In this document: positions 34,601-58,196 of the stretch, one piece after another
Layout of the letters: every line of letters starts with the position of its first letter
Position numbering within the stretch: position 1 is the stretch's first letter
IMG/VR virus record: IMGVR_UViG_3300022902_000004
Coordinates: 254,268-318,267 of that record
Direction: 5' to 3' (one strand)
DNA from: a virus
DNA: 64,000 bases
Program-made: the position numbers and the translations under genes
The notes under the pieces: generated by a model
What the model was told of the DNA's origin: nothing
The model's input: the letters and a program-made list of their open reading frames with translations, nothing else
The model's database searches: none

Positions 34601-34660
34601 TTGTCTTCCTTCCATGGTCGTCCCGACCAATACGTTTATTATACCACAAATTCGTGTTTC

Positions 34661-42467: not shown

Positions 42468-43148
42468 TTCGCAAAGATATTTATATGTATAAAGAGTTAT
42501 TACGTTTATCGTATTATTAACAAGCTGAATGGGCGATTTTATATCGGCGTTAGAACCTGCAAAGGAAATATTCATACAGATTCATACATGGGATCAGGTT
42601 CTGCGATTGGATTAGCTATCAAAAAATATGGAAAGGAAAACTTTGCTAAGGTTATAATGTCGCAACATGAAACCCGCAATGAAGCATTGCTTGCTGAGGC
42701 TTTGTATGTTCCGCAAGAGTTGGTCGACGATTCAATATGTTACAATCTTTGCCAAGGTGGTCTCGGCGGTGAAGGATATTCCCCTTCTGTTGAAACACGA
42801 AAGAAACTTAGCAACGCATTGAAAGGTCACCTTGTCTCTATTGAAACACGAAAGAAAATCGCCAAATCATTGACAGGTGGAACTAGATCACTTGAATCTC
42901 GACAAAAAATGCGCGAACGAGCCTTACAAAGAGAACCCATATCAGATGCTACTCGTCAAAAAATGAGTGCAGCAAAGAAAAAGCAAGCAAGAACGCCGGC
43001 TGCACGCAAAAGAGTAAGTTTGTCTACCATTGGAAGACTTTGGTGGAACAATGGCACCCAAAATAAGTTTTGTAAAGATTGCCCGGGTGATGAATATGTC
43101 CGCGGCCGAATCAAATGGGCCAAATCACTTGATAAGAAGCCTATCTAA
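42468..43148 (+). CDS. GIY-YIG homing endonuclease with NUMOD3 repeats; no canonical ATG at the expected start
   Basis: In-frame KSYYVYRIINKLNGRFYIGV (GIY-YIG) precedes the first ATG. Repeats ETRKKLSNALKG, ETRKKIAKSLTG, ESRQKMRERA. AT-rich island. Confidence 0.6.
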   Translation, partial: FAKIFICIKSYYVYRIINKLNGRFYIGVRTCKGNIHTDSYMGSGSAIGLAIKKYGKENFAKVIMSQHETRNEALLAEALYVPQELVDDSICYNLCQGGLGGEGYSPSVETRKKLSNALKGHLVSIETRKKIAKSLTGGTRSLESRQKMRERALQREPISDATRQKMSAAKKKQARTPAARKRVSLSTIGRLWWNNGTQNKFCKDCPGDEYVRGRIKWAKSLDKKPI

Positions 43149-43995: not shown

Positions 43996-44856
43996 CTAAA
44001 TAGGCTCACGCTTAGCGCGCTTAGACCTATTTGGCATACTGTTTCTGCCCATAACCCATCCGACGCGAATGTTGCTTTCAACATCATCAATTGGAACCAA
44101 TTTATTGGCACCATCTTTTTTCATCCATTTTCTTGCTTTGGCAAATTGTGTTCGGCCCGGCTTCCAGCCTTTTTTCAAGTATTCATCAAACAACATGTTT
44201 TGTATTTGCTTGTTTACACCATTTTTACAAACCCATTTAAACGTTTTGCCAAAGTTAGGATTGTTTTCGCCAGTCATTAAATCAGATTGGCGTTGTTTTT
44301 GTTCGTTTGTTCTGGTCGTTCCAAACATCCCGTTCTTTTCGCCCATTAAAGATGCTGATCGTCTTGCAAGCATCACAATTTGTAATTCGTCTGCTTTTTC
44401 TTTGCCATATTTTTCAAGCCATACATCATAGCATCCGCGACCACGCATTCCATGGTTTTTTGATATTAATCGTTTCGTTTTTTCTGTGTGTTTTCTACCA
44501 TAAAAAGGGTTTCCTGTTCCACGAAATGAATCGGCAATTTCATTCAATGCAATATGCTTTTCATGATCAGATGCCAGATGTTGCACACCAAATCGCATTA
44601 ATGCAAAAACCATTTTTGATTTTTCAATGCCGACTAACATTTTTGTTAACAATCTATGAACTGCATAATGCTCAAGCACGGTTAACAAAACAAGATTTTC
44701 ACAGTCGTCGGTGCCACCTAATGATTTCGGTAAAATGTGATGATTATGATAATTGGCTACATCACTTCTTCGTCGACATGAGAGTTTTGCACTTTTAATT
44801 ATTTCATAATATTGGTGCGTTGAATCGTTATCAATAAACATTTTTGTTCGTCGCAT
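43996..44856 (-). CDS. HNH homing endonuclease with NUMOD-like repeats
   Basis: HHILPKSLGGTDDCENLVLLTVLEH; repeats NPFYGRKHTEKTKRLIS and NGMFGTTRTNEQKQRQS. Confidence 0.8.
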   Translation of the reverse strand: MRRTKMFIDNDSTHQYYEIIKSAKLSCRRRSDVANYHNHHILPKSLGGTDDCENLVLLTVLEHYAVHRLLTKMLVGIEKSKMVFALMRFGVQHLASDHEKHIALNEIADSFRGTGNPFYGRKHTEKTKRLISKNHGMRGRGCYDVWLEKYGKEKADELQIVMLARRSASLMGEKNGMFGTTRTNEQKQRQSDLMTGENNPNFGKTFKWVCKNGVNKQIQNMLFDEYLKKGWKPGRTQFAKARKWMKKDGANKLVPIDDVESNIRVGWVMGRNSMPNRSKRAKREPI

Positions 44857-44920: not shown

Positions 44921-45334
44921 TTAAATTGTCCCGTCACCATCGAAAAATGCCATGAGGCGTTTATTGTATGCACCGAATGGGCCGTTGTTAACCCAGGAAA
45001 CTGGAACCCAGGCAACCCAGCCTTCTTTCTTCAGGCGGATGCCTCGAAACTTGACAGGAACACGGCACTTATAGAAGTGCGACCTCTCGCGGTATGCTAC
45101 ATGACTGACGTACGGTTTTTGGAGTAAATCCAATGTGCTCAGCATGATTCCTGTTTCTTCGTACAGCTCTCTGACAGCGGCATAAATCGCATACTCACCG
45201 TCTTCGATCTTACCTCCTGGCAAGCCCCACTTGGTGCTGAAGATTCCCCGGGTTACTCCTAGAACGTAGTCTTCCTTTGTTGGATGGTAAATCAAGACAC
45301 CTGCGCTTTCCAGCGGTCGTCGTTTGTTTTTCAT
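44921..45334 (-). CDS. Nudix hydrolase
   Basis: Nudix box GLPGGKIEDGEYAIYAAVRELYEETG. Trimmed to MKNKRRP with a GAGAGGATGA RBS. Confidence 0.8.
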   Translation of the reverse strand: MKNKRRPLESAGVLIYHPTKEDYVLGVTRGIFSTKWGLPGGKIEDGEYAIYAAVRELYEETGIMLSTLDLLQKPYVSHVAYRERSHFYKCRVPVKFRGIRLKKEGWVAWVPVSWVNNGPFGAYNKRLMAFFDGDGTI

Positions 45335-45350
45335 ATCATCCTCTCTTCGT

Positions 45351-45440
45351 TGGTGTACCCGCCCGGAGTCGAACCGGGGTGTTGAACGCTTCAATTTCAT
45401 GTCATTCACAAGGTTATCCGGTTCTTCTCAACCGGCAAGT
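45351..45440 (-). tRNA. tRNA-like element (canonical T-arm and ACCA 3' end; 5' half not foldable by eye) - possibly degenerate
   Basis: Minus strand ...CCCGGTTCGACTCCGGGCGGGTACACCA-3'. No matching acceptor 5' strand found. Followed by ~350 nt without ORFs. Confidence 0.3.
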
Positions 45441-45787
45441 CTGCCTATAAAACACCCGTCCCGTTCTAGACACTGGGACCCACCTGGCGAGCCAGGGAAC
45501 CATTTAGCAACCATTTTTATCTCAATGCGGTAAAACATCCAGCCAATTTTGGGTATCAAGGTAGTTGGCCACCTCGCAATTATGCAGCTTGTGCGTAAGA
45601 GTACTCCGAGTTATCGTTAGCAATTATCATTTCAGCGTTTTTACGAAGCCGCGCTGCCCTTCGCCTTGCACATTCAATATTATTCGCCCAATCGAAACCA
45701 GTTCGGGCACATTGTTTGTCAAATTCTCCTATGTTCAGCGACGTTTCATCGCCCTCAATATAAGTATAATCATTTTGCGAAAGATGT

Positions 45788-46420
45788 TCACAGGCCTAGC
45801 TTCTTCAAGCGAGAGATTGTGTCCTTACTCTGTCCAGTTACATGCAGGATTGCGATTCCTCCTGCTTCCTGCCACTCCTTGATTGTTCGAGGTTTGTCGT
45901 CAATCAAAACATTCGGCACACCATCAGTTGTAGCGTAATTCTGCTTTGCAGCAGCCCTCGTGCAGATAACCTCCTTTGCTTCTGGGCTCAAATTCGAGCG
46001 GGCCCAGACGACCTTTCCAGATTCAGCAGAAGTGCCAGAGCGGTGAGAAATGCCAGCAGTAAGCAATCGAACAGTTCGGCCACGTGTGACCAGGAATGGC
46101 CAAAGCAACTCAACTCCGTCAGCCTGCTTTCCAAGTCCTGCGAACCATGCACCCGGGTCCCGGCCAATCAGGAAAAACATCAAATTACGAACCGACTTGT
46201 AATTCAAGTCATCCTCAGTCGATGTCCTGAAATCTGGACCCAGCTCCTTCAGCACCTTTCGGTATGCTCGTGCCTGCCCGACACTCAGGAACTCCTTCTC
46301 AACACTCGATGCGTTGTCCAAGAATTTATTCACATCGGCGATTGCAGTCGATACAAAATCAACGATCACTCCGTCCATGTCACAGTAAATATCAGACCTA
46401 GTATCCAGCTTCACACTCAT
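45788..46420 (-). CDS. HAD-superfamily 5'(3')-deoxyribonucleotidase-like protein
   Basis: CDMDGVIVDF motif I; ~210 aa. Confidence 0.65.
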   Translation of the reverse strand: MSVKLDTRSDIYCDMDGVIVDFVSTAIADVNKFLDNASSVEKEFLSVGQARAYRKVLKELGPDFRTSTEDDLNYKSVRNLMFFLIGRDPGAWFAGLGKQADGVELLWPFLVTRGRTVRLLTAGISHRSGTSAESGKVVWARSNLSPEAKEVICTRAAAKQNYATTDGVPNVLIDDKPRTIKEWQEAGGIAILHVTGQSKDTISRLKKLGL

Positions 46421-46468
46421 AAATTAACCTCTTATTGTATTATCATTGGCCACCATGGCCATTATTCT

Positions 46469-46957
46469 CTATCGTCGATGTGCTGCAAGTCGTTCAGAGA
46501 CAACCTTTGCACTCATTCCCTTTATCGGTCGTTCGCCGTACCCGGTGTGCCATTTGAAGTTTTTCGAAGGCTTTCCCCATCCCCGGGTGATGTCACCAAG
46601 CTGGGCAATCATGCCCCGGAGGTTCCTTGCTACAACTGTACCTTTGACACCTGGTTCTGACGTCCAAAGACCAGAAACCACCGGTGGGGTTGACCCACCC
46701 ATCCCATCGTAGCCACCTTGAGCACTTCGCTCAGTCAACTCGATTGTGACCGTGTCAGTCTGCGGATGATACCATACCTTGAAAAGTTCTGATGTACGTG
46801 AGTCTTGGCCAATGAACGAAACACACTCCCCGATCAATCGGTTGGTATCCCAATTCATCTTGATTGGCTCGATTCGGTTATATCGAACGTCATACGAATA
46901 CGACTCCGACAGCGCTCGCTTTACAACATTCCGCAATTTATTCTCAGTGATTTTCAT
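46469..46957 (-). CDS. hypothetical protein (162 aa)
   Basis: ORF between the nucleotidase and purA-like genes. Confidence 0.55.
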   Translation of the reverse strand: MKITENKLRNVVKRALSESYSYDVRYNRIEPIKMNWDTNRLIGECVSFIGQDSRTSELFKVWYHPQTDTVTIELTERSAQGGYDGMGGSTPPVVSGLWTSEPGVKGTVVARNLRGMIAQLGDITRGWGKPSKNFKWHTGYGERPIKGMSAKVVSERLAAHRR

Positions 46958-47030
46958 GTTTGTCCTACTGTTGCGTATAAATATTGAAGAGAAAGCTCTC
47001 CATTGTCGTTACATTAATATTATACCACGC

Positions 47031-47303
47031 TTAGAGACATCTTACACGATATAGGTTCTTAGCAAGCACTAATTTTAGGTTTCTTTCGTACTCAAACCGG
47101 CACCCGAGATTCCACGGGGTAAGATTGTACGATGTCCATTTCGGCCACTCAGATGACGAGCGTTTTTTCCCGGTCGACGTTGTACCGTTTGGTGCATTGA
47201 TCTTTGTAATCAATCGAGGAATAGCTCCACCTTCTTCTTCCGTCAGATAGGTGATAGAAACTAAGTCGCCCACCTCGAATTTTGAAATAGATGACTCGGC
47301 CAT
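47031..47303 (-). CDS. small beta-barrel-like protein (FEVGDLVSI, family A-like)
   Basis: Abuts the purA-like gene. Confidence 0.45.
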   Translation of the reverse strand: MAESSISKFEVGDLVSITYLTEEEGGAIPRLITKINAPNGTTSTGKKRSSSEWPKWTSYNLTPWNLGCRFEYERNLKLVLAKNLYRVRCL

Positions 47304-48320
47304 TTATATCTCCAAAGGTGATGCCGACCAAATGATCTCATTCAATGACTGACTGCATGATTGGCGCAAAAACTCCCCAACGATAAACTTGAAAGTGTGA
47401 AATTCCTTAATCACAGTAATGAGCTGCCCGTCCTTGTAAAGATTGAAGACACCGACCTCCTCGAAGACATCGCTTTTGTTCATTATCAACGTGTTGACAC
47501 CATTTACGTTTACTGCCTTGATAAGGTTGTCGACGTCCAGCCAATTTGTCTGTCGTGGACGTCCCGTAGTAGCTCCAAACTCGTTGCCAACCTTTTGCAG
47601 TTCATACAACGCAGGCTCTTTACCCTGAAACGCCTTGGCACCGACGTATGTTTCGTATGGCTTGGCCACACCGTACACCTTCTTGATTGCCTGCGGTGGG
47701 ATGCCCGCCATGACAGCTCCGGCGGTGGTGCAGGTTGCAGACGTGACGTATGGATAGTCTCCCCAGTCGACATCGAGATAGAAGCCTTGGGCTCCCTCCA
47801 TTAGGACATTGACATCGGCCTCATTTGTATGAAGTTCCTTGTATTCGTCAATCAAGTAAAGCCCGAGACGCCAGTCTTCCTCAGCACATGTGCCAACACG
47901 ACTGACCTTATCACGATACGCAGGACCATTCCCTGTCTTGGTCGTACCGATTCGGGATTCACCTGCTTCCTCTTCGACATGTTCGGGTGTCACCAAGTGT
48001 GCCTTTTCAGATACACGGAGAAGATCAACCATCTCAATTCCAGCAGCCGCAAGCTCAGATATTTCATTCATCAGCTTTTTGGTGTCGACAACACAGCCTC
48101 GACCAATAATCGATTTCAGCCCGCGGAACACACCGGCTGGCACCAGGTGGGTGACAAATTTCTTCCCTTCGTGGTAGATTGTGTGGCCTGCGTTGGAGCC
48201 TCCACTGAATCGCATGACATGGGTATAGTTTCCCTTCTTCGCCAGCGAATGAACAACCTTTCCTTTGCCGCAGTCGCCACTTTGGCAGTCTACAACAACA
48301 TCTGCTGATAGTTTACTCAT
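47304..48320 (-). CDS. purA: adenylosuccinate synthetase family protein, short archaeal-type (PurA or PurZ)
   Basis: QSGDCGKGKVV and GGSNAGHT P-loop signatures; TKTGNGPAY; YLDVDWGDYPYVTS; GTTGRPRQTNWLD. 338 aa. Confidence 0.85.
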   Translation of the reverse strand: MSKLSADVVVDCQSGDCGKGKVVHSLAKKGNYTHVMRFSGGSNAGHTIYHEGKKFVTHLVPAGVFRGLKSIIGRGCVVDTKKLMNEISELAAAGIEMVDLLRVSEKAHLVTPEHVEEEAGESRIGTTKTGNGPAYRDKVSRVGTCAEEDWRLGLYLIDEYKELHTNEADVNVLMEGAQGFYLDVDWGDYPYVTSATCTTAGAVMAGIPPQAIKKVYGVAKPYETYVGAKAFQGKEPALYELQKVGNEFGATTGRPRQTNWLDVDNLIKAVNVNGVNTLIMNKSDVFEEVGVFNLYKDGQLITVIKEFHTFKFIVGEFLRQSCSQSLNEIIWSASPLEI

Positions 48321-48328
48321 TTTTTCCT

Positions 48329-49213
48329 TTATAAGATTTGTTTGAAATCGTTTATGTCAATTTGTTTTTTCGCGTTTCGCTTGTTTATAATAAAACAAAA
48401 CGTTTTGTTGTTCAGTTTACAATAATCTGTTGCCGCGGCGTTCTTTGCCATGACTTTATCTTTTTGTTTGTCATACCAATATGTGCTTTTTATTTCGACA
48501 AGCTTATTTCCATTTGTTGTTTCAACTTCAAAATCTACAAAATAATGATGAATGGTACCATTATATGCGTATTTTATTGTCGGCCCATTATGGACACGAA
48601 TATTATTACTTTCACAAAATTGAACAAATTTTTGTTCATATGATCCTTGCACCGCAATCGTGTCATCAAATTTTGTAACATAGCGTTTTGACAATGCCCG
48701 GCCACCTCCATTGCATGCTGCCCGATTTGCTATTTCATTATCATGCATTACATTTTCAACGCCATATCGTTCCATAACGACCTTTTTTATTTTTTCTTTG
48801 ATTTCTTGAGACTGTCCGGGATATTCTACACCGTAATTTTTTAGCATTGTTTGCTTTTTCTTTTCTTTGACTTCTTGAGCCTGTGATGGGTTTTCAACAC
48901 CATACTTTTCTAAATTGCTAGCAATGATTCTTTTTTTGATTTGTTTTGCAGCAAAGACATTCTTAACGCCATATCGGTCTAAAGTCGTTTGCTTTCTTTT
49001 CTCGTTAGCTTGACTTGCTTTCGCCTTAATCGACTTTCCTGATCTTTGGCGGCGTCCTGGGTTTGCATCGCAGCACGCTCGCGAGCAAAAATGATAATTT
49101 GCGCTCATACAAGCTTTTCTATACATTCTTTTGAATTTTATGTTGCATGTTTCACATTGCAGTAGCAATGTACGTTTTGGTGGGGCAGTCTTGTGTAGTA
49201 TTTTTATGAACAT
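48329..49213 (-). CDS. homing-endonuclease-like protein: zinc ribbon, tandem YGVxNP repeats, PD-(D/E)xK-like C-terminus
   Basis: Repeats YGVKNVFAAK, YGVENPSQAQ, YGVEYPGQSQ, YGVENVMHD. HYFVDFEVETTNGNKLVEIKS. Strongly AT-rich island. Confidence 0.65.
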   Translation of the reverse strand: MFIKILHKTAPPKRTLLLQCETCNIKFKRMYRKACMSANYHFCSRACCDANPGRRQRSGKSIKAKASQANEKRKQTTLDRYGVKNVFAAKQIKKRIIASNLEKYGVENPSQAQEVKEKKKQTMLKNYGVEYPGQSQEIKEKIKKVVMERYGVENVMHDNEIANRAACNGGGRALSKRYVTKFDDTIAVQGSYEQKFVQFCESNNIRVHNGPTIKYAYNGTIHHYFVDFEVETTNGNKLVEIKSTYWYDKQKDKVMAKNAAATDYCKLNNKTFCFIINKRNAKKQIDINDFKQIL

Positions 49214-49299
49214 GATTATAAATATCTAGGTAAACAAAAAACCACAATCGCCGTATTGGCAATCTACAACAATATCAGCCGTCAACATTTATAGGGCTC

Positions 49300-49830
49300 C
49301 TAAGCTTTGTCGCGGGATCCGTACCGCATGAGAACATTGTACTCGTTTGTCTTTCCAATCCGTGAAAAAATGAGCGGGATATAAATCCAGATCTTCTTAT
49401 CCTTCCACTTTTCTTTGAGCTCTGGGATGATTGCGTCTTTCAATCGCTGGCCAAATTCAATGTCAGCCACCGGCTGACCGCTCGATAGTTGTTGTGCAAT
49501 GTCATCGTTTGTTGGTCCCTGGACTGTTGCGGTCAACGTGTGCGTTAATGCGACGACCGCGTCGCCATCATCAGGAAGTGCCGCCGGAAGCGTCATAATA
49601 TCCCAGTCAAGATCAAGGTCGCGGAAGACTCTTGTAATCGCTGGAAAGACGATGTCAACAGACTCAGGAGTCCACGTGCGGGGTTTCTCCTTTGGAGGGT
49701 GGCCTGTACTCATAAGCGCATACTTCGCCTGGTTTTCCAGGAGATTCGCTGTCAAATACGCTCGTTTCTCCTCCAATCCTTGAAGCAACCCTGTCTTACT
49801 CCATTTTTCCACAATTCCTTCACGCGTCAT
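49300..49830 (-). CDS. hypothetical protein (176 aa)
   Basis: ORF chain. Confidence 0.55.
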   Translation of the reverse strand: MTREGIVEKWSKTGLLQGLEEKRAYLTANLLENQAKYALMSTGHPPKEKPRTWTPESVDIVFPAITRVFRDLDLDWDIMTLPAALPDDGDAVVALTHTLTATVQGPTNDDIAQQLSSGQPVADIEFGQRLKDAIIPELKEKWKDKKIWIYIPLIFSRIGKTNEYNVLMRYGSRDKA

Positions 49831-50104
49831 TATGTTTTGCCTCTGTTGTAATCATTGCCAGAATAACTTTCGCGATCTCACCTGTCAGAATGTCTTCAGC
49901 TTTCTTGACACCTAAAATTGCTGAGTCATCCATCAGTTGCTCAGTGTCCCAATGGAAGTCCACTTTGCGCCCATCGAGGTACAGTTTCCTGTATCCCTTG
50001 AACGTGGCGGAATCAAACATAACCGGCGACAGGCGCAAACGTCCTCGATCGATCCCGGCGACGTATGCAATTGCCTGCATGGCATCTTCAAATTTCTCTT
50101 TCAT
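49820..50104 (-). CDS. hypothetical protein (94 aa)
   Basis: ORF chain. Confidence 0.5.
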   Translation of the reverse strand: MKEKFEDAMQAIAYVAGIDRGRLRLSPVMFDSATFKGYRKLYLDGRKVDFHWDTEQLMDDSAILGVKKAEDILTGEIAKVILAMITTEAKHNDA

Positions 50105-50580
50105 TACTTTACCCCTTTTGGTTTGCGCATTGGTGCGATTTTGATGTTGTTGAACTTGCAGAAGTAGAGAATGTGTTCGTACATTTCAGTGCTGCTATTC
50201 ACACCCCAATCGGTATTCTCATCAATGATATCCTTTTCATGCGGCGCGCCGTAAGTGAACACCGAATCATATGCCTTCAATGCAATATCGAGATAATAAT
50301 CGTAGTCATCCCATTCTTGTTCTGTGTCTTTGATCCATTGAATCTTTTCATCAAGAGCCTTTTTGTTGTTTTGAACGCTGTGAGACCATACCCACTTTTG
50401 TGGAGCATCCTGATAAAAACGATATACACCTAGAAGTGTGGGATGTTTCGGGTTTGGTCTGATGGAGAAAGCTTTCGTACTGAATAAAGCTGACTCATCT
50501 TGAATCACAACGATTCGCTTTTTGGCAGCCTCAATGAGCTCCTCGAGCTCCAACACACCCAGGTTTGAAATGTCAGTCAT
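50104..50580 (-). CDS. hypothetical protein (158 aa)
   Basis: ORF chain. Confidence 0.55.
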   Translation of the reverse strand: MTDISNLGVLELEELIEAAKKRIVVIQDESALFSTKAFSIRPNPKHPTLLGVYRFYQDAPQKWVWSHSVQNNKKALDEKIQWIKDTEQEWDDYDYYLDIALKAYDSVFTYGAPHEKDIIDENTDWGVNSSTEMYEHILYFCKFNNIKIAPMRKPKGVK

Positions 50581-50863
50581 TTTCTAGCATGTCCTTGAAG
50601 CCTTGAATGCTCCTTTTCAGCATTCCCTCGAGCTTCTCGTCAGTTGCAAACACCGGGTAAACACATTCAATTCGTGTCTCAGATTCAACTGGAATAATCA
50701 CCGTAATGATTTCACCACAATCAGGTCCGGTGGGTTCGGATGTTTGCCCGGTTTGTTCCTTAAAGTAGTTTTGGGCATTTTCAAGGTAATTATGACGATC
50801 ACCAAAGGCGACTTTGCGAGTGTCCAAGTAGATTGCCAAAATCAATAGCTTATTCATTTCCAT
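50573..50863 (-). CDS. hypothetical protein
   Basis: ORF chain. Confidence 0.5.
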   Translation of the reverse strand: MEMNKLLILAIYLDTRKVAFGDRHNYLENAQNYFKEQTGQTSEPTGPDCGEIITVIIPVESETRIECVYPVFATDEKLEGMLKRSIQGFKDMLEND

Positions 50864-51131
50864 TCCTCAATTTTTCGTAGTTTTTGATGCATGATGCCTC
50901 TGACAATTCATTTGGTAGCCATGCTTTATCGAAGTACCTGTCACGTTGGATACCGAGCTCATCAATGTAAACGTAGCCTAGGTTGTTAGGGTACAGGAAG
51001 TACACACCCGGAAGCAACCCCTTTGGAAGCTCGTCCTCATGAAATGATCCTTGGAACTTCACCGGCTGACCGTTGTACGTCTTTGGTGGCTGCCCAAAGA
51101 TTGACGCGATTTCTAGGTTCACATAGCTCAT
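50850..51131 (-). CDS. hypothetical protein (93 aa)
   Basis: ORF chain. Confidence 0.5.
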   Translation of the reverse strand: MSYVNLEIASIFGQPPKTYNGQPVKFQGSFHEDELPKGLLPGVYFLYPNNLGYVYIDELGIQRDRYFDKAWLPNELSEASCIKNYEKLRNGNE

Positions 51132-51162
51132 GTATTTATTCTATGAAAAAGGGTTGTGGTGT

Positions 51163-51381
51163 TCACTTATGACGATTGATAAGGGAGAGCTCGCAAGCCA
51201 TTCGGGTGGCATTGCAATCTGCAAACATAATGCAAACAACATCTTTATCATCACACACCCGTGTGACTATGCCGGGATGAAGGTCAGACTGTTCAAACTC
51301 TGTTTGCCAGCCATGCCGTGCTTCACGGGCGTTGATAAGATCCCCAACCTCAAAGATAAAATTCGGTGCTTCTGTTTTCAT
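51163..51381 (-). CDS. small beta-barrel-like protein (FIFEVGDLINA)
   Basis: Trimmed to MKTEAPNF with a GGAAAAGG RBS. Confidence 0.45.
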   Translation of the reverse strand: MKTEAPNFIFEVGDLINAREARHGWQTEFEQSDLHPGIVTRVCDDKDVVCIMFADCNATRMACELSLINRHK

Positions 51382-51556
51382 AAAACCTTTTCCATGCGCT
51401 TTCAAACAGGAAATGACAAGTGGCAAGGACGGCATGCAATGCCATTGTCATTCCTGTGCTTTCTTTGATGTTCCCAGTGACTAGGTAAATGACCAGCAAC
51501 GTAATGGAAACCGATATGCACCTCCACAGTATTACTTTGATCAATGTACCTTTCAT
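51350..51556 (-). CDS. small membrane protein
   Basis: 2 TM; directly downstream of nadV. Confidence 0.45.
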   Translation of the reverse strand: MKGTLIKVILWRCISVSITLLVIYLVTGNIKESTGMTMALHAVLATCHFLFESAWKRFYENRSTEFYL

Positions 51557-51557
51557 G

Positions 51558-52967
51558 TTAACCCCACGTGTTCTTGCGGACTTCGTCCAGCGTGTAATCC
51601 TGTGTCACCTCACCATCCTCAAACACCGTCTCGAGCAGGTCAGCATCTGATGCCGAAGACTCCGGAACGGTCATGATTTTATTTCCGTCTCTACCTGTCA
51701 TTGCAACCAAGGCATGTCGGCCCGGCTTCGAGCGCTTACCTGGAGCATCAATCGGATCCTTGAACACGTCTCGGCCTTCACCATTTACGCTAATCCAAGA
51801 ACACTTGAATGCAAACTTCTGGGTGTCACGGTTCATCTTCTGGAGCAAGGCTCCTCCTGACCCGAATGCGATATTATCGGCACTCCAACCAGCAGCCATG
51901 ATTGCATCAAGAATCTGGGAAATCACAAAGCGGTCAACTCCATCCCCTTGGATGATACGCACGTGAGGATCTAAGACCTTGTAACCTTTCTTGTTGGTGG
52001 TAAATCCAAAGGCCTCCCCAAGACGCTCCAGACACTCCAGGACAACACTCTGTGGGTCTCCTGAGTCCGGCCGTACGACCAGCGTTCCATCTCGAGCCAG
52101 GATTTCTGCTTTCAGTTCCTGACCCCACAATTCTGAGCACGCTTTGTAAATGTCGTAGCTATCTGAAACGCATGCAACCAGTCCGGTTGGGTATTGCTCC
52201 AGCATGTTTCGAAAGGCATTGACCTCGCCTTCCTTTCCCCACGATGTAATTGTCGAGTGCTCACTGGCTGGAATGCTGAATCCTGCCATTTGAGTGTTGT
52301 AGTGGTTCCTGGCCAATACCAAGGCTGCCACCGTATCTGTTCCCATGAAGTTGACAAGGTGACCGAAGCCACCGATGCCTGCAGTTTCAACAGACGACAC
52401 ACCACGGAAACCGAAGTCGTGCAGTTTGAAGTAGATGCCTGCTGGTGTTCCGGATTTCTCCAGTGCCGCAGCAATAATCAACCGGCTGGCCCGACTAATC
52501 GTTGCCACGGTGCACGGGTACCAAACCTGAACCAGCAAGGTCTCGAGGTAATTGGTCAACCACCAACACTTCGGGTCTGTATTCTCAATCGTCAACATCA
52601 CGTTGTGGGTCGGAACAACTGTTCCTTCCCTGACCGCTTTGATTCTGACGGGCAACCGCCCATCATGCTCATTGAGAATGTGCTCCCAGCCTTCTCGGTT
52701 GAAACACGTATCGTTGCCGAAATGCAGATGGAAGAATTCCTCTGCTTCGTCGATGCGTTCCTGTGTTACGACCTGTCCCTCGAGGTATTCCTGCAAGAAG
52801 TACTGCAGTCCCACGAAGACAACATCGTCGAATTCACCGCCGCGACTCTCAAAGTAGGAGTAAACGGTCTCAGTTCCCTCAGGATATTGCTTGGAATGTG
52901 ATACCTTGTATGAATCTGTCATCAAGATAATGTTTTTTGGATCGATGTTCTTGTTGTAGTAGCTCAT
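51558..52967 (-). CDS. nadV: nicotinamide phosphoribosyltransferase (NAMPT)
   Basis: 469 aa with NAPRTase-family motifs (GTDTVA..., FGFRGVSS). AAGAGGTGAAAGC RBS. Confidence 0.85.
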   Translation of the reverse strand: MSYYNKNIDPKNIILMTDSYKVSHSKQYPEGTETVYSYFESRGGEFDDVVFVGLQYFLQEYLEGQVVTQERIDEAEEFFHLHFGNDTCFNREGWEHILNEHDGRLPVRIKAVREGTVVPTHNVMLTIENTDPKCWWLTNYLETLLVQVWYPCTVATISRASRLIIAAALEKSGTPAGIYFKLHDFGFRGVSSVETAGIGGFGHLVNFMGTDTVAALVLARNHYNTQMAGFSIPASEHSTITSWGKEGEVNAFRNMLEQYPTGLVACVSDSYDIYKACSELWGQELKAEILARDGTLVVRPDSGDPQSVVLECLERLGEAFGFTTNKKGYKVLDPHVRIIQGDGVDRFVISQILDAIMAAGWSADNIAFGSGGALLQKMNRDTQKFAFKCSWISVNGEGRDVFKDPIDAPGKRSKPGRHALVAMTGRDGNKIMTVPESSASDADLLETVFEDGEVTQDYTLDEVRKNTWG

Positions 52968-53968
52968 GCTTTCACCTCTTTCTTCGATGTGATCTTCACT
53001 TTCTTCGGGGACAGTCTTGTACGTTCCTTTGGCATGTTTTTTTCAATGTGCTCCACTAGTGCATTGCAAAGCGGAACGTGCTCATCGCAAACGAAATTTG
53101 AAATCGTTGACGGCAAAACATCCAGTCCACACTTAAGCCTTTCGATTTTGACCCATTCGACTTCGTACAAATCATCTGTCGCCTCAATGGGTCCCCACAA
53201 GTACACACCGGTGAAAAACACAGTCGTGATTTTATCCTGACGTCTTCGATAGCGCCAGTCGTCGATAACGAAAGAGCCAATGTATTTGAGTGGCTTGCTC
53301 ACCTCAATGTTCCCACCGGTTTCCTCGTTGAATTCTCGGAGAGCTCCTTGCTCATGGGTTTCTCCGGGCTGCAAAAAGCCGCCAGGGAACCGTAGCTTGG
53401 CACCTTCATACTTACGACCCATCAAGACTTCATTCGTCTTGTAGTTGATGACAGCCATGTCGGTCGTGCCATACGCAGTCGGGTAACGATTGTATGAACC
53501 GTAAATGACACCGCGGCGGAAGTCGATTGAACCGTTGGCACGTAGTGCTGCTTCGGCTCGAACCTGTGTTCCGCTGATGTAAATCTTCTGCTCCAACTCA
53601 ACGGTTGGGAAGACACCATGGTATCGCAACATGAAGCTGTCTCGGCTACCGTAAAGGGTAACATCTCCAACAGGACACACTTCTCGAATCTTCTTGTCTA
53701 AGAGGGCAGACCAGGGCTTGTCGAATTCTTGGTCTGAAATTGGTAGAACAATAATCTCAGGGTACTTTTCCTGAATCATCTTTTTTCGTAGATCGTAATC
53801 CAGTGGATTCCTTTTGTCTCCCAAACCGGGACAAATCCCGAGGAACACGATCACTTTGTTGTGGGTCTCAGCCACTTCATCCAGAACACCAACGTGTCCT
53901 GCATGCAACTCCGGAATCTGAAATCTCCCGACCACGACTCCAATCTCACGCTTTTTATTATCACTCAT
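52964..53968 (-). CDS. natV: bifunctional NMN adenylyltransferase / Nudix ADP-ribose pyrophosphatase
   Basis: N-terminal GRFQIPELHAGH nucleotidyltransferase motif; C-terminal Nudix box GGFLQPGETHEQGALREFNEETG. ATGA overlap with nadV. Confidence 0.85.
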   Translation of the reverse strand: MSDNKKREIGVVVGRFQIPELHAGHVGVLDEVAETHNKVIVFLGICPGLGDKRNPLDYDLRKKMIQEKYPEIIVLPISDQEFDKPWSALLDKKIREVCPVGDVTLYGSRDSFMLRYHGVFPTVELEQKIYISGTQVRAEAALRANGSIDFRRGVIYGSYNRYPTAYGTTDMAVINYKTNEVLMGRKYEGAKLRFPGGFLQPGETHEQGALREFNEETGGNIEVSKPLKYIGSFVIDDWRYRRRQDKITTVFFTGVYLWGPIEATDDLYEVEWVKIERLKCGLDVLPSTISNFVCDEHVPLCNALVEHIEKNMPKERTRLSPKKVKITSKKEVKA

Positions 53969-54112
53969 TTATACACTCTTCCTTGCTAGGACCACAATCA
54001 ACCTAAGCCTCCCGGCTGTGATTATGATGTTTCGCTGTTTGCCTCCCGGCATTTACGAGAACCCCTTGTCCTCATGATCTAATTATACCCGCCACCATGG
54101 CGATGTACAAAA

Positions 54113-55147
54113 CTATGCTCCGTGCGGTTTATTCTCCTGCTGAGTTGCAGATGAAACCTTCACAAACTCGTGGCGTTCATACAACTCCGGTACTGTTCGT
54201 GCTCCTGAGTATGACAGGCCACTTCGAATCCGCGCCGCGAAGGGTTTCATTACACTAGCAACAGATCCCTTTGGATCAATCATCGCTGTGGTACCTTCAA
54301 TGTATTGTGGGTCCTTGTCACCAGGCTTCTTACGGCGATGCTGGGCAACATTAGATGCCATACCTTCATACGCGATCTTGCCATTCCATGTTCCACCGTT
54401 TGGGCACTCATTCGTTCCTGCGAGAACAGATCCAAGCATCACAAAGCTTGCACCGGCGGCGAGGGCCTTTACAGCGTCACCACTGTTTCGAATGCCACCG
54501 TCTGCAATAATGGGTGCCTCGCTGCGGGATATTTTGACACGACAAACAGACTCAAGCGTCGGCAACCCGTGACCGGTTACAACCCGAGTGGTGCAAACAC
54601 TTCCTCCACCGATGCCAACACGAACCATATCAGCACCTGCTTCATAAAGAAACTCAGCACCAGCTGCTGTGGCAACGTTGCCAGCAATGATCAGAATTTT
54701 ATCACCAAACTCATCCCGTAATCGGTGAATTGCGTCTTTAACATTCTTATGATGTCCATGGGCTACATCGATTAGGAAAATCTTTGTCCCACATAATTCG
54801 TATGCTGCTTTGGCACGTACAAAAAAGTCCCCTGTCGCGCCAATTGCAACTCCGTATAGCGGAGCAGTCACTTTGCGAATGATGTCTAGCTGTTCCTCAA
54901 CGGTATTGTAACGATGGATAATACCCATCCCACCGCAATCACCCAAGGCATTGCACATCTCGTCTTCACAAATCGTTGTCATCGGCGCCGCAATGACGGG
55001 AAGATACAAATAACCAAACCCTCGAGGCAGGCCAGCACCAATCACAATGTCATCCCTCGAGGGGATCGATGATTTGCGTGGTACCAGAAGTACATCATCA
55101 AAACAAATTGTGTCATACGCAAATGCGTTATGTGCATATCGTGTCAT
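54113..55147 (-). CDS. GMP reductase / IMP dehydrogenase family protein lacking CBS domains (GuaC-like)
   Basis: FDDVLLVP and GIGGGSVCTTR catalytic loop. ~344 aa, trimmed to MTRYAHNAF with a GGAG RBS. Confidence 0.75.
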   Translation of the reverse strand: MTRYAHNAFAYDTICFDDVLLVPRKSSIPSRDDIVIGAGLPRGFGYLYLPVIAAPMTTICEDEMCNALGDCGGMGIIHRYNTVEEQLDIIRKVTAPLYGVAIGATGDFFVRAKAAYELCGTKIFLIDVAHGHHKNVKDAIHRLRDEFGDKILIIAGNVATAAGAEFLYEAGADMVRVGIGGGSVCTTRVVTGHGLPTLESVCRVKISRSEAPIIADGGIRNSGDAVKALAAGASFVMLGSVLAGTNECPNGGTWNGKIAYEGMASNVAQHRRKKPGDKDPQYIEGTTAMIDPKGSVASVMKPFAARIRSGLSYSGARTVPELYERHEFVKVSSATQQENKPHGA

Positions 55148-55148
55148 A

Positions 55149-56054
55149 TTACTTATCTCCCCATGATTTTGTTCGCAAGTGAATCGAGAACAGCTTTGCA
55201 GCTCGAGCACCAATTGCTTTCCTTACCTCTCGGGTTGGCTCAAACTCGCCTTCACCTTCGATCATGACATCTTCGATCATTGCAGGAATGATTTTCTGCA
55301 TGTCAGCGTAACCCACATCTTGCGGGAACTTGTCAAGCACATGCTCCAGGCGCATATCGGTAACCCACTCTTCAGCAATTGCTTGGGCGCCATTCAGCTT
55401 CTTCCTTGCATCGGGATCCAAGATGGTGTCACCTTTCGATGCCCGCTCAGAAAACTCAGCAGTCTTGTGTTTTGCCATCAGTCGCTTACCGCTCGGCATT
55501 GCAACCTCTTCGATTGGCCGGAGCACGACACCTTCAGATACTTTATCCTCGATGATACCTCGGCGTTTGGCAACCCGAGACGGTTTATCTCGTTCAATCG
55601 TGACTGCCGCAAGGTTGGCTGGGATCCGTTCATATGGAACGAACTCAAGCCCAAACTTAAGGACAAACTCTTCAGCCCGAGGAACAGGCAACCATTCATT
55701 GCCGAGTTTGACTTCAAATGCGATGAAGAGTAGTTTTGGTCCATATGTGTGCGACATTTTCTGTTGAGCGCCGCCATATGCCTCACCGAAAATGGTTACA
55801 TCAGCATGCCCAAGCTCGTGAAAGATGTCAATGAGTCCTTGCTGATAAAACAAGTCGGTGAACTCTTGATGCTTCGACCCGCCAGAAAAGAATCGCAATA
55901 CGGCATTGTTCTTATTCTTCGGTGTCTTGTTGGTATAACGGATATGTGCCGATGTGCCATGAACTTTCTCCATGGCATAACACTCCTTGAAAAGCAGGAT
56001 GTTTTGGTCTTTGTATAGATTTGAGATCTTGGCGTATCCAATAATGTCCCCCAC
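55149..56054 (-). CDS. rnl2: RNA ligase, Rnl2 family (probable GTG start)
   Basis: Motif I EKVHGTS (T4 Rnl2 KIHGTN). ~300 aa. Confidence 0.75.
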   Translation of the reverse strand: MGDIIGYAKISNLYKDQNILLFKECYAMEKVHGTSAHIRYTNKTPKNKNNAVLRFFSGGSKHQEFTDLFYQQGLIDIFHELGHADVTIFGEAYGGAQQKMSHTYGPKLLFIAFEVKLGNEWLPVPRAEEFVLKFGLEFVPYERIPANLAAVTIERDKPSRVAKRRGIIEDKVSEGVVLRPIEEVAMPSGKRLMAKHKTAEFSERASKGDTILDPDARKKLNGAQAIAEEWVTDMRLEHVLDKFPQDVGYADMQKIIPAMIEDVMIEGEGEFEPTREVRKAIGARAAKLFSIHLRTKSWGDK

Positions 56055-56069: not shown

Positions 56070-56112
56070 TATTTATAACTCAATTATATCATAAAAATTG
56101 TCAGTTTACACG
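56070..56112 (-). promoter_or_regulatory. early-promoter cassette (TGATATAAT variant) driving rnl2-guaC-natV-nadV
   Basis: Minus strand GTGTAAAC ... TGATATAAT, ~25 nt upstream of the start. Confidence 0.45.
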
Positions 56113-56157
56113 AACAACTGGATATTTAGTAACGTATACATAACCCATGGAGAATAT

Positions 56158-56823
56158 ATGAAACGCCATTACATAATTTACACATACAAAGATCCTCGAA
56201 ACGACAACATATTCTATGTTGGCCAAAGTATCAACGGAATGAAAAGAGCCCAAGCCTTTAGCCAACACAACGTTTGGTGCAGGAGAGTTATTGCAAAAAT
56301 TGAAGCATCGGGAATGCATGTTGAAATAGAGATCACTGATGAACTTGAAAAGACACGCGACGTCCGAAATGAATTGAACGTCGCTGAAAAGGCTCGCTGT
56401 GCTGCTATTCAAAATGAAGGGCATCATCTAACAAACCTGCTTTTTGGTGAAAACATGAATAGACCGCATCTGTATGAGACAGAAAGAAAAGCTCATGGAA
56501 ACAAAGGAAAAGTTCGAACCGCCGAACATAGAAAGAACATGAGTAAGGCCCAAAAAGGACGTAAGCATTCACCAGAAACAAAAATGAAAACGTCTCAATC
56601 TCTCACAGGTAGAAAAAAGTCTGAGGCTCACAAAAAAGCAATGCGTGATAATTGGTATGAAAAGCGGGGCCCAGAAGTTTTCGAGAAGATTGCCGCATCA
56701 AAACGAGGTAAACCTAGAAGTGAAGAAACAAAGGCGAAAATTTCAGCATCTGGTAAACAAGGTGCACTGAAAGGATGGGAAACCCGAAGACGCAACGCTG
56801 AAGCTAAAACCATACCAGGATGA
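56158..56823 (+). CDS. GIY-YIG homing endonuclease (Seg-like) with NUMOD3 repeats
   Basis: MKRHYIIYTYKD ... FYVGQS. Repeats AEHRKNMSKAQKG, PETKMKTSQSLTG, EETKAKISASGKQ. GGAGAATAT RBS. Opposite strand to neighbours. Confidence 0.75.
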   Translation: MKRHYIIYTYKDPRNDNIFYVGQSINGMKRAQAFSQHNVWCRRVIAKIEASGMHVEIEITDELEKTRDVRNELNVAEKARCAAIQNEGHHLTNLLFGENMNRPHLYETERKAHGNKGKVRTAEHRKNMSKAQKGRKHSPETKMKTSQSLTGRKKSEAHKKAMRDNWYEKRGPEVFEKIAASKRGKPRSEETKAKISASGKQGALKGWETRRRNAEAKTIPG

Positions 56824-56844: not shown

Positions 56845-57369
56845 TTACTTTTCTAATAGTTTCTTCATTGATTTGAGTTTTTTCAATGTTGTTGGAGGTT
56901 TTGTCCAGCACATGCCAAGAGCGGGAGTGTCTGAGAATTCGCCGACCTCATCAATATTCGTTCCAGTCACATCCGGGCGGTAATCACGGTAGTGGTTCCA
57001 TACATTTTGGGCTTCATCTGAAACTGGGTCGCGGTCGGCCATGAGCCCATCGCCTTCCTTTGTGGCATACTCCATGGCGACATCGTATAGTAACGGTCCC
57101 CATGATTTTGATGCCCTGACGAAGTTTATCATCCAGACGTTCCCGGCGATATCATGCATCGTTTCTACTGATGCCGGTGGGTCAATGTACATCTCGCCGA
57201 GGGGTGTTCCGCCATGATCGATGGGCTTCTTTGATTTGTCGCTGTAGTAAATGTGTACACCGTACTCATCCATTGCAGACGAGTCAATGGTGATATACAC
57301 ATCGTCTAGGTCATTGATACCGACGGCACGCTCGAGGAGTATTTCAATGTATTCACGGAGGAGCTTCAT
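56845..57369 (-). CDS. paralog family F protein (SWGPLLYDVAME) with CTS-like leader MKLLREYIEILLE
   Basis: Motif shared with 36092..36748 and 58853..59479. Confidence 0.55.
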   Translation of the reverse strand: MKLLREYIEILLERAVGINDLDDVYITIDSSAMDEYGVHIYYSDKSKKPIDHGGTPLGEMYIDPPASVETMHDIAGNVWMINFVRASKSWGPLLYDVAMEYATKEGDGLMADRDPVSDEAQNVWNHYRDYRPDVTGTNIDEVGEFSDTPALGMCWTKPPTTLKKLKSMKKLLEK

Positions 57370-58196
57370 ACCAATTGAGCCCTCAGTTTTGTCTTTGGGT
57401 ATTTGCCCGCCAGTGCGGCGACGGCTTTTATGTTCTTCGCTGAGTCATCTATAAAGTAAATGTCGTCATGGCCGTTGTTGATTTTTTCTTCAATCCAGTC
57501 TGCTTTGACTTGCGGGTCTGAATTGCCTAGCGTCACCAATTCGATGCTGCTTGTATCTATACCAATGTCTTCTAGGAAATCAAGTATTCCTATCCTTGCG
57601 GCATCACCTCGAGCAGTCAAAATCACCACATGCCTGCCTTGGCTTCCGGCTGCCAAAACCCTGCGAAGGATTTTCATGTGCCCCTTGATTGCCTGCGGGT
57701 TTTTGAGGGCACCACCAAATTGGCTATAGTCGAATTCGTCACCTTTGACAGGTTTATAGATCGACCACTCGGCTGGCGTCTGTTCTATCGTCTCACCGGA
57801 TGCCTTGTTCAAGATGATCATTGAATCGGTCATCGCCAGCGTATCATCAAAATCAAAAACCCTTAGCTTTCTTTCGGTAAGCATTTTTTGCTCTACTAGA
57901 TTGCCGAACCGAGAAATATCTTTCGCCGAAACCCAATAGTGTCGTTCGCCATCAGGAAATTCGTCGTCTAAGTTTGCATATTGCTCAGGTATTTCAATTG
58001 CCACAAGCTCATTTCCATAATCATTCGTTGCTTCGCCATTAGGACTTGTTGAAAAATAAACCTCTGTTCCAAAACCCGTTTTTATCTTCGAGGTAAAACC
58101 ATTTCGCTGTATCGCGGCGGCGTTGTTCGTTCGATGGTACAGCAATAGCGTTTTTTCTGCAAGTAGCATCCCAATATATTCGCGGAGGAGTTTCAT
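57366..58196 (-). CDS. two-domain protein: unknown N-terminal domain plus HAD-like phosphatase (DxDxT), CTS-like leader MKLLREYIGMLLAE
   Basis: VFDFDDTLAM motif I; ATGA overlap. Confidence 0.6.
   Translation of the reverse strand: MKLLREYIGMLLAEKTLLLYHRTNNAAAIQRNGFTSKIKTGFGTEVYFSTSPNGEATNDYGNELVAIEIPEQYANLDDEFPDGERHYWVSAKDISRFGNLVEQKMLTERKLRVFDFDDTLAMTDSMIILNKASGETIEQTPAEWSIYKPVKGDEFDYSQFGGALKNPQAIKGHMKILRRVLAAGSQGRHVVILTARGDAARIGILDFLEDIGIDTSSIELVTLGNSDPQVKADWIEEKINNGHDDIYFIDDSAKNIKAVAALAGKYPKTKLRAQLV

Follow-up and report, generated by a model that had tools for sequence, protein, structure and literature searches.

Introduction

Why would a phage keep genes for rebuilding nicotinamide adenine dinucleotide (NAD+) in one block with genes for purine nucleotide metabolism, and do the two sets of enzymes serve one pathway or two? 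The question arises from a 64,000-nt stretch of viral DNA (positions 254,268 to 318,267 of IMG/VR record IMGVR_UViG_3300022902_000004; hereafter the window, in whose coordinates all positions are given). Its source is a jumbo phage with a genome of at least 318 kb, as judged from a metagenomic contig of 318,267 bp that encodes a protein 100% identical to the HAD protein of the island described next. An island at 44921-56054 of the window encodes a NadV/Nampt enzyme, a NatV-like protein with NMNAT and Nudix domains, a short PurA-type adenylosuccinate synthetase, and an oxidoreductase of the inosine monophosphate dehydrogenase (IMPDH)/guanosine monophosphate reductase (GMPR) family that is CBS-less and has a truncated flap. 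With moderate confidence, we read the island as two functionally separate modules: the known NAD+ reconstitution pathway NARP2, and a purine-interconversion pair that would lead from guanosine monophosphate (GMP) through inosine monophosphate (IMP) to adenylosuccinate.

Phage rebalancing of pyrimidines, by dCMP deaminase and thymidylate synthase, and phage rebuilding of NAD+ (NARP1-3) are both established, whereas a viral route from guanylate to adenylate is not. The two purine enzymes belong to large virus-borne families that are often adjacent and share IMP, and they thus offer a directly testable hypothesis with two clonable genes.

Results

The island is conserved and under purifying selection

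Domain searches recovered all six enzymes that a first-pass annotation of this DNA had named in the island (a Nudix hydrolase, a HAD-superfamily phosphatase, and the four proteins introduced above) together with an RNA ligase, and every island feature lies on the minus strand. Gene order is kept in a 53.6-kb contig of a related phage (L001), with protein identities of 80-94%; L001 is without the endonuclease gene of the window's island and has an extra TROVE/Ro60-like gene. The ratio of nonsynonymous to synonymous substitution rates (dN/dS) between the window and L001 is 0.05-0.16 for every enzyme and similarly low for several of the open reading frames (ORFs) without a recognized function. 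The island enzymes are under purifying selection, and these ratios, together with the kept gene order, indicate that the island genes are real and functional.

The window is about 49% G+C, gene-dense, and mostly transcribed from the minus strand. When the island was compared by megablast with 50,697 phage records, no match came up, so the phage has no close sequenced relative in that set; the best matches of the window proteins come from uncultured "huge phages" of 460-735 kb.

A flap-truncated IMPDH-family protein with a GMPR-like signature

The direction of the proposed purine route depends on the 344-aa IMPDH-like protein, which belongs to a viral family with at least 572 confirmed IMG/VR loci. 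In an alignment with E. coli GuaB and GuaC, the protein has neither the CBS pair nor the GuaB flap insert MSKGSSDRYF, which carries the Arg-Tyr dyad. The catalytic Cys loop is present as GGGSVCTTR, and C185, T187, and E284, which correspond to Cys186, Thr188, and Glu289 of human GMPR2, are invariant across the family (dN/dS of the protein against its L001 counterpart, 0.09). Measured between the motifs GM[AGS]S and EG, the flap of the window protein has 18 aa and no RY, that of E. coli GuaB has 24 aa including DRYF, and that of E. coli GuaC has 17 aa; in all 80 viral relatives examined, it is 14-15 aa long and without RY. This pattern is the one described for GMPR, which has no Arg418-Tyr419 dyad and a truncated flap because hydrolysis of E-XMP* must be avoided, and which keeps Thr321 and Glu431; substitution of the arginine (R418A/Q) lowers hydrolysis by ~1000-fold (Min et al. 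2008, PMC2525682).

As a natural control, we compared this flap with those of cellular proteins by scanning 185,579 species genomes. All canonical IMPDHs recovered there, whether or not they have CBS domains, carry a flap of 21-34 residues containing DRYFQ or a close variant. The same scan brought out a cellular clade of CBS-less proteins of 334-349 aa whose 17-residue, RY-less flap ends in EWKTA-EG and resembles the EYRAA-EG of GuaC. Its members occur in Legionella, Bdellovibrionota, Blastocatellia, Desulfobacterales, and other taxa (L175, L177, L182, L184, L185, L187-L189, L191, L205). The best Protein Data Bank match of the viral family profile is a member of this clade, Legionella 3r2g, deposited as "IMP dehydrogenase" (381 bits, nearly gapless). 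Against the NCBIfam models for IMPDH and GMPR, a CBS-less IMPDH that bears RY scores 455 versus 226 bits, whereas the short clades score nearly equally on both. The cellular short clade is probably an unrecognized type of GMPR that is now annotated as IMP dehydrogenase. Its gene neighbors in Legionella, Bdellovibrionota, Blastocatellia, and Sedimenticolaceae gave no hint of function.

A rough neighbor-joining tree resolves the viral family, canonical IMPDH, the Legionella-type clade, and GuaC-type GMPR as four groups and supports the viral family, including the window protein, at 100% bootstrap, the Legionella-type clade at 100%, and GuaC-type GMPR at 90%; monophyly of the viral and Legionella-type clades together receives 53%. 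None of the NCBIfam cutoffs is reached (TIGR01302, 222.7 versus 481.5 bits; GMPR, 179 versus 397; GuaB1, 171-173 versus 549-675). The predicted enzyme, first described as GuaC-like, is thus a member of an uncharacterized, mainly viral, flap-less clade and is not GuaC-like by descent. We infer from its catalytic signature a GMPR that would have arisen independently of GuaC.

Several observations weigh against the GMPR assignment, and they lend themselves to an alternative that we regard as unlikely, namely that the protein is a minimal IMP dehydrogenase, converting IMP to xanthosine monophosphate by way of either the ancestral activation of water by Thr and Glu or the conserved basic residue of the flap (Arg or Lys). 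With PurA, such an enzyme would boost the first committed steps of both the AMP and the GMP branches, and no guanylate would be turned into adenylate. Overall, the protein is indeed closer to IMPDH than to GuaC-type GMPR: the tree sets both short clades nearer IMPDH, the structure database matches are stronger for IMPDH (E = 1e-64) than for GuaC-type GMPR (5e-38), and the NCBIfam scores are 223 versus 179 bits. The motif DVAHGHH (DVANGYS in GuaC) and the C-terminal ES..H are IMPDH-like as well, and Joint Genome Institute annotations label relatives "IMP dehydrogenase." Thr and Glu are kept, and their relay alone sustains slow IMPDH turnover, giving the residual activity of R418 mutants (PMC2525682). 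The short flap also retains a conserved basic residue (WRG in 73 of the 80 viral loci, RK in the window), which could conceivably activate water. Flap length alone is, moreover, not diagnostic of GMPR, because the flap is long in GuaB1, a type of GMPR whose activity is proven; the GuaB1 papers are silent on loss of the Arg-Tyr dyad in that type. Set against this alternative, the dyad is missing in 80 of 80 viral loci, even though every canonical IMPDH recovered keeps DRYFQ despite loss of CBS domains in some; loss of Arg418 is costly for hydrolysis, by the ~1000-fold noted above; the near-equal model scores of the viral clade depart from the 455 versus 226 bits of a true CBS-less IMPDH; and no GuaA, which would finish GMP synthesis, was seen nearby.

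The adenylosuccinate synthetase is of the PurA type

The second purine enzyme would use the IMP made by the first. It is one of a large group of viral proteins of 330-340 aa that share 52-63% identity and are encoded on viral or jumbo-phage-like contigs (at least 430 confirmed IMG/VR loci). PurA-type genes have been reported on aquatic viral contigs with unmodified deoxyadenosine.

The protein scores 264 bits against PF00709 (cutoff, 27), and its dN/dS is 0.08 against L001. Structure database matches are far stronger for cellular PurA (E = 5e-54) than for PurZ (5e-20 to 4e-16). Among NCBIfam models, PurA models reach up to 267 bits (cutoff, 402) and the PurZ model NF038379 reaches 135 (cutoff, 300), so that both cutoffs are missed. 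The shortfall against the curated PurA equivalog cutoff is explained by two deletions: the protein is without the equivalents of E. coli residues 152-194 and 384-413, as are the short archaeal PurA proteins.

Residues were compared by alignment with E. coli PurA, phiVC8 PurZ, and Burkholderia phage Bm1 PurZ and are given in E. coli numbering. The protein keeps D13, K16, N38, H41, T128/T129, R143, Q224, V273, T300/T301, R303, R305, K331, D333, and S414. Among these, D13 and H41 are catalytic (D16 and H46 of the window protein) and invariant across the viral family, and the ligands of IMP and aspartate (N38, T128/T129, R143, Q224, V273, T300/T301, R303, and R305) are all identical. The TTGRxR motif is retained, and the guanine-specific GTP motif NKxD is present as NKSD (residues 281-284). 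Two substitutions stand out, E14C, which gives the P-loop QSGDCGKGK, and R131T.

The counterparts in the two PurZ proteins are S13, T14, L18, V300, F331, and N333, and the window protein has none of these PurZ-specific changes. At position 13, 99% of PurA proteins have Asp, and 100% of phage PurZ proteins have Ser (PMC12884076). The published PurZ discriminators, in phiVC8 numbering, are S14, F12, T262, F295, and Y298, the last two being aromatic residues for ATP. A PurZ identity had been suspected at first from the length of 338 aa and the odd P-loop; residues and model scores led us to reject it. The assignment of the predicted synthetase to the true PurA type, and not to PurZ, is solid as far as sequence goes.

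The two purine genes recur as a pair

We searched all island proteins by tblastn against 160 fetched IMG/VR loci, 80 centered on PurA and 80 on the IMPDH-like gene. Both purine genes were found together in 13/80 loci of one set and 15/80 of the other. Counting only loci with enough flanking sequence, 11 of 49 IMPDH-like-centered and 11 of 62 PurA-centered loci hold both, and with full 10-kb flanks the fractions are 5/18 and 7/27. In about 20-25% of testable loci, then, the two genes share a strand and lie within a few kilobases of each other. In the IMG/VR loci, PurA is always upstream, and the genes are mostly 0.8-3.9 kb apart; the usual arrangement is PurA, dUTPase, a small zinc-finger ORF, and the IMPDH-like gene. 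After the IMPDH-like gene of this marine module there regularly come an ORF of ~110 aa and then one of ~80 aa with a domain that resembles sigma-70 region 4 (L155, 13422-13676; L006, 11336-11575; and equivalents).

The window and L001 have the opposite gene order, with NARP2 and small ORFs in between. The two purine genes of the window are 5.8 kb apart, split by NARP2, seven ORFs without an assigned role, and a homing endonuclease, and because of this separation, direct coregulation of the window pair is not supported. Nor does nucleotide composition speak for the pair, since pair-carrying contigs range from 0.34 to 0.49 in G+C content (window, 0.49) and show no obvious compositional need for conversion of G to A. 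The idea that such a pair would serve an AT-rich phage is unsupported on the same grounds.

Of the 80 PurA-centered loci, only 2 have NARP2 genes within 10 kb of PurA; one of them is L149, on a 242-kb contig. It had been proposed that the adenylate made by the purine pair links it to NAD+, of which adenylate is the nucleotide moiety. Because NARP2 is usually absent where the pair occurs, that link is not directly supported.

A search for PurB homologs in the window and in 2.4 Mb of viral loci found none, and the host would therefore have to finish the pathway by cleaving adenylosuccinate. A dependence on host PurB is also known for the PurZ pathway. Our literature search for a phage pairing of PurA with GMPR or IMPDH, or for an antidefense role of such a pair, returned no more than a brief reference to a viral GMP reductase, in a deep-ocean pelagimyophage ecotype; within the literature covered by this search, the pairing of viral PurA with the flap-less enzyme is undescribed.

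A different reading is that there is no pathway, the island being a hyperplastic region that gathers unrelated auxiliary genes, RNA genes, and homing endonuclease genes; PurA, the IMPDH-like enzyme, NARP2, Nudix, and HAD would then work independently of one another, and their proximity would reflect shared marine phage ancestry. The stretch does contain a transfer-messenger RNA (tmRNA) gene, a homing endonuclease gene, and nine ORFs of no recognized function, and four or more homing-endonuclease-like genes lie in the surrounding 15 kb. Roughly 75-80% of testable one-gene loci are without the partner within 10 kb, and many of the loci with the pair share flanks (dUTPase, zinc-finger ORF, sigma-r4-like ORF) and may belong to one phage lineage. 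Yet the pair occurs in two gene orders and contexts (PurA, dUTPase, IMPDH-like gene in marine loci; IMPDH-like gene, NARP2, PurA in the window), and the PurA sequences of the two contexts are only ~51-59% identical. Near PurA, the only other island proteins found were NAMPT (two loci), NMNAT (one), and HAD (one), and none was found near the IMPDH-like gene. IMP, finally, is a metabolite common to both enzymes. We consider a region of unrelated genes improbable.

That the synthetase is instead of the PurZ type, acting toward 2-aminoadenine (Z) or another modified purine with the Nudix, HAD, and IMPDH-like proteins supplying or clearing precursors, is very improbable: most PurA homologs in sequenced phages are PurZ, Z-genome phages combine PurZ with nucleotide hydrolases, and the protein is as short as PurZ (and archaeal PurA), but its Asp13, T300, R303, K331, and D333 and its model scores (above) set it apart, and DatZ, MazZ, and DpoZ were undetected among the scanned window ORFs, which is weak evidence given that the genome has at least 318 kb and the window only 64.

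The NAD+ module is an instance of NARP2

The NadV/Nampt protein scores 631 bits against NCBIfam PRK09198, above the equivalog cutoff of 405, and is 47% identical to KVP40 NadV over 97% of its length (dN/dS against L001, 0.06). Its partner is divergent: the NMNAT-Nudix protein matches CTP_transf_like at E = 1.6e-5 and NUDIX at 8e-15, and it carries the motifs GRFQ..HAGH and ISGTQVR and an intact Nudix box, GFLQPGETHEQGALREFNEETG. Two results speak against equating it with NatV. It falls far below all NCBIfam cutoffs, with weak matches to all PRK05379 bifunctional models, and a direct tblastn comparison with KVP40 NatV gave no match at E <= 1e-5. Only nine phage matches were found, mostly in huge uncultured phages, and in LR756502 the homolog adjoins NAMPT.

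The first-pass annotation had read these two genes as a nicotinamide-to-NAD+ salvage pathway that could counter NAD+-depleting defenses. This holds, but it is not new. Nampt plus Nmnat is the published NAD+ reconstitution pathway NARP2, present in ~1.1% of sequenced phages; NARP2 raises NAD+ in infection, and its co-expression abolished type I Thoeris and DSR2 defense (bioRxiv 10.1101/2024.02.11.579819). Of the phages with Nampt, 94% also encode Nmnat. As predicted from domains and gene order, the pair in the island is a routine new instance of this known system.

Accessory enzymes, neighboring genes, and island anatomy

Coordinates of all features are given in Table 1. The coordinates of the six enzymes in the earlier description stand; it had overlooked the tmRNA gene, the DUF7487 endonuclease gene, the nine ORFs without recognized enzymatic function (two plus seven small ones), and the likely start of the Nudix gene.

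Table 1. Features of the island and of the surrounding window.
Feature	Coordinates	Strand	Evidence or remark
MutT-like Nudix hydrolase, probably 137 aa	44921..45334	-	PF00293, E 1e-14; Nudix box GKIEDGEYAIYAAVRELYEETG intact
tmRNA (ssrA), full length	45351..45710	-	ARAGORN; Rfam RF00023; tag ANDNSEYSYAQAA*
HAD-superfamily phosphatase, NT5C-like by transitive homology	45788..46420	-	Homologs, motifs, model
ORF, 162 aa	46469..46957	-	Conserved; no family match; 88% identity to L001, dN/dS 0.055
ORF, 90 aa	47031..47303	-	Abuts PurA stop codon; no family match; 64% identity in L001
Short PurA-type adenylosuccinate synthetase, 338 aa	47304..48320	-	PF00709, E 2.9e-78
DUF7487/TnsA-like endonuclease, probably homing	48329..49213	-	PF24308, E 5e-28; Tn7_TnsA-like_N, E 2e-5
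Terminator-like hairpin	49264-49246		Upstream of DUF7487 endonuclease gene
Seven small ORFs, packed or overlapping	49300..51556	-	176, 94, 158, 96, 93, 90, and 68 aa
NadV/Nampt, first NARP2 enzyme	51558..52967	-	NAMPT_N and NAPRTase domains
Bifunctional NMNAT + Nudix (NatV/NadM-Nudix type), second NARP2 enzyme, divergent	52964..53968	-	4-nt overlap with NAMPT
CBS-less, flap-truncated IMPDH/GMPR-family oxidoreductase, 344 aa, putative GMP reductase	54113..55147	-	PF00478, E 2e-84
Rnl2-like (ATP-type) RNA ligase	55149..56054	-	PF09414, E 1.4e-10; weak TIGR02307 Rnl2 match
Extended -10-like TGaTATAAT, possible promoter	56083..56091	-	Sequence reading, upstream of RNA ligase
Homing-endonuclease-like gene	29573-30907	-	
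Homing-endonuclease-like gene	42588-43148	+	
Homing-endonuclease-like gene	43996-44856	-	
Homing-endonuclease-like gene	48329-49213	-	The DUF7487 gene above
Homing-endonuclease-like gene	56098-56823	+	
Metallophosphoesterase	33854-34630	-	RNA-repair-like
Zeta-toxin/AAA_33 kinase	35358-36095	-	RNA-repair-like
tRNA nucleotidyltransferase, 583 aa	36748-38499	-	RNA-repair-like
HAD/DUF2608, polynucleotide kinase-phosphatase-like	57366-58196	-	RNA-repair-like
Major vault protein (MVP)-like ORF, 520 aa	62172-63734	-	MVP shoulder (E 2e-21), vault repeat, SPFH/Band-7 domains

The tmRNA matches RF00023 with 92 bits (gathering score, 47; E = 3.7e-35) over model positions 1-374 of 374, and the same gene with the same tag is found in L001 at 14937-15296 (+). 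tmRNAs have been reported in huge phages and in some mycobacteriophages. Of the 378 nt that seemed to separate the HAD gene from the Nudix gene, the tmRNA gene takes up the greater part. The Nudix ORF, which had been listed as 44921-45409, stays readable as far as a GTG at 45409; because the tmRNA overlaps that extension, the protein most likely starts at Met26, with 137 aa as in L001. The L001 homolog is 88% identical (dN/dS, 0.06), and the NCBIfam matches of the Nudix protein are weak and of the MutT type.

The HAD protein had been described as resembling a 5′(3′)-deoxyribonucleotidase. Its own match to the Pfam NT5C family (PF06941) is below cutoff (12.7 bits versus a gathering score of 24.8; E = 0.12), and a direct sequence search of the Protein Data Bank gave no match, whereas homologs at 30-35% identity carry PF06941. 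The motifs DMDGV, K136/K159, and DD174-175 are invariant (alignment A5). An AlphaFold model (predicted local distance difference test score, 94.5) has the HAD fold; in a fold search with it, the cytosolic and mitochondrial deoxyribonucleotidases (cdN/mdN) ranked 6-34 and were among the matches of lowest root-mean-square deviation, and generic HAD phosphatases scored equally. The label "NT5C-like" is a reasonable one, for which the model supports the fold and not the subfamily.

The seven small ORFs between the endonuclease gene and NAMPT have counterparts in identical order in L001, with dN/dS of 0.07-0.15 for the 93-, 94-, 96-, and 158-aa ORFs. Only the last (68 aa), a predicted membrane protein, matches a family (DUF2061, E = 8e-7). 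It (51350-51556) overlaps the 90-aa ORF (51163-51435) by 86 nt in a different frame, and both match L001 in tblastn. The true start of the 90-aa ORF is probably internal, because the gene caller kept only a 70-aa version in L001.

The DUF7487 endonuclease gene sits between the small-ORF block and PurA. L001 is without it, and its PurA gene follows the small ORFs after 10 nt. In all, five homing-endonuclease-like genes (HNH, NUMOD3-containing, and DUF7487/TnsA-like) lie within ~27 kb of the window.

The RNA ligase carries motif I as EKVHGTS and is 91% identical to its L001 counterpart (dN/dS, 0.05). The Rnl2 family consists of ATP-using ligases, so the suggestion that NAD+ salvage offsets NAD+ consumed by ligases fails for the adjacent enzyme, which is predicted to consume none. 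We regard the tmRNA, the RNA ligase, and the homing endonuclease as neighbors of the pathways, outside them. Other genes in the window are also RNA-repair-like (Table 1), and no tRNA genes were found within its 64 kb. In L001, a protein with TROVE (Ro60-like) and VWA domains is encoded directly after PurA (11406-12746, +), a gene the window is without. Together, the TROVE protein, the MVP-like ORF, the tmRNA, the CCA-adding enzyme, and the RNA ligase suggest a theme of RNA quality control and repair.

Transcription of the island

Co-transcription of the island with the RNA ligase, from a single promoter at 56070-56112, had been proposed. The RNA ligase gene is indeed the first of a tightly spaced block, and its stop codon is 1 nt from the start of the IMPDH-like gene. 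Intergenic gaps are mostly -14 to +31 nt; larger ones precede the NMNAT-Nudix gene (144 nt) and the endonuclease gene (86 nt), the latter with the terminator-like hairpin. This spacing suggests co-transcription of the island.

A single-promoter operon is not demonstrated by these data. A sigma-70 scan did not recover the promoter, and its total of 27 hits is no excess over chance (23.3 ± 4.5); what remains in the proposed region is the extended -10 match, with a -35-like hexamer just 10 nt away. In L001, the RNA ligase gene comes 8 nt after codirectional upstream genes, and the transcription unit may therefore start farther upstream. At this position, the window has an inserted NUMOD3 endonuclease gene on the plus strand. 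A different HNH gene stands just ahead of the RNA ligase gene in L001.

Discussion

Taken together, our results lead us to view the island as part of a long codirectional accessory-gene block of a jumbo phage that, somewhat more probably than otherwise, handles the nucleotide and cofactor pools of the infected cell. In the NAD+ module, Nampt would make nicotinamide mononucleotide from nicotinamide and phosphoribosyl pyrophosphate, and the NMNAT domain of the NatV-like protein would adenylylate it to NAD+; the module would thereby rebuild NAD+ during infection, also after NAD+-depleting defenses have acted. In the purine module, the flap-less enzyme would act as a GMP reductase (GMP + NADPH to IMP + NH3), the short PurA would join IMP to aspartate, with GTP, to give adenylosuccinate, and host PurB would cleave this to adenosine monophosphate (AMP). 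On balance, guanylate, such as that released when host RNA and DNA are degraded, would move into the adenylate pool needed for ATP, dATP, and NAD+. The MutT-like Nudix and NT5C-like HAD proteins would serve as accessory nucleotide hydrolases. The earlier proposal, in which a PurA-type enzyme receives its IMP from a GMP reductase, is strengthened by the PurA residues, the flap signature, and the recurrent adjacency of the genes, with the activities themselves predicted from sequence.

A more far-reaching interpretation, which we put forward only as a speculative one, is that the short PurA and the flap-less enzyme form a dedicated and widespread viral system of adenylate reconstitution, the equivalent of NARP for purines, that, with NARP2, would rebuild AMP and ATP from IMP and GMP when adenine nucleotides are destroyed by host immunity. 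The immunity in question would be ATP-to-ITP deaminases of the RADAR or Cad1 type, or ATP nucleosidases; the MutT-like Nudix protein might help as a pyrophosphatase of inosine triphosphate (ITP) or GTP, and the flap-less clade would be a third, independently evolved type of GMP reductase. If the pair does accompany NARP2 for a reason, the principle of rebuilding what immunity depletes would extend from NAD+ to adenine nucleotides.

The enzyme clade flagged here may also bear on cellular biology, as it may relate to proteins of Legionella, Bdellovibrionota, and others, including PDB 3r2g. The clade is annotated "IMP dehydrogenase," although it is without the residues that make IMPDH a hydrolase.

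Comparison with known systems

The NAD+ module shares with NARP2 of KVP40 (NadV/NatV) the adjacency of Nampt and a bifunctional NMNAT-Nudix gene, with matching architecture and motifs. It differs in that the window NMNAT-Nudix protein is highly divergent and the gene pair is flanked by two purine-metabolism genes.

The synthetase resembles E. coli PurA and the short archaeal forms (PDB 2d7u and 5k7x) in its catalytic and substrate residues and in NKxD, and its length is that of the archaeal forms. Unlike E. coli PurA, it is without the segments 152-194 and 384-413, has GDCGKGK for GDEGKGK and Thr for R131, and belongs to a virus-borne family. Like PurZ and PurZ0 (phiVC8, S-2L), it is a short homolog of PurA encoded by a phage, and its product would have to be processed by host PurB; in contrast, PurZ has Ser13, Thr14, and V300 and has lost NKxD (to F and N), and the window protein shows none of these features.

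The putative GMP reductase is like GuaC-type GMPR (E. coli, with phage copies annotated in XacN1, Cr30, and phage G) in being CBS-less, in its length of ~340 aa, in its Cys-Thr-Glu residues, and in its short, RY-less flap. It belongs to a separate clade, however, its flap does not carry the E-Y-R-A-A of GuaC, and it has DVAHGHH in place of DVANGYS. Its likeness to the Legionella-type short clade (3r2g), the best Protein Data Bank match of the viral profile, extends to the absence of CBS domains and of the RY dyad and to a similar length; the two are told apart by their flaps, which have 17 aa and end in EWKTA-EG in the Legionella type, 14 aa with WRG in the viral family, and 18 aa in the window protein.

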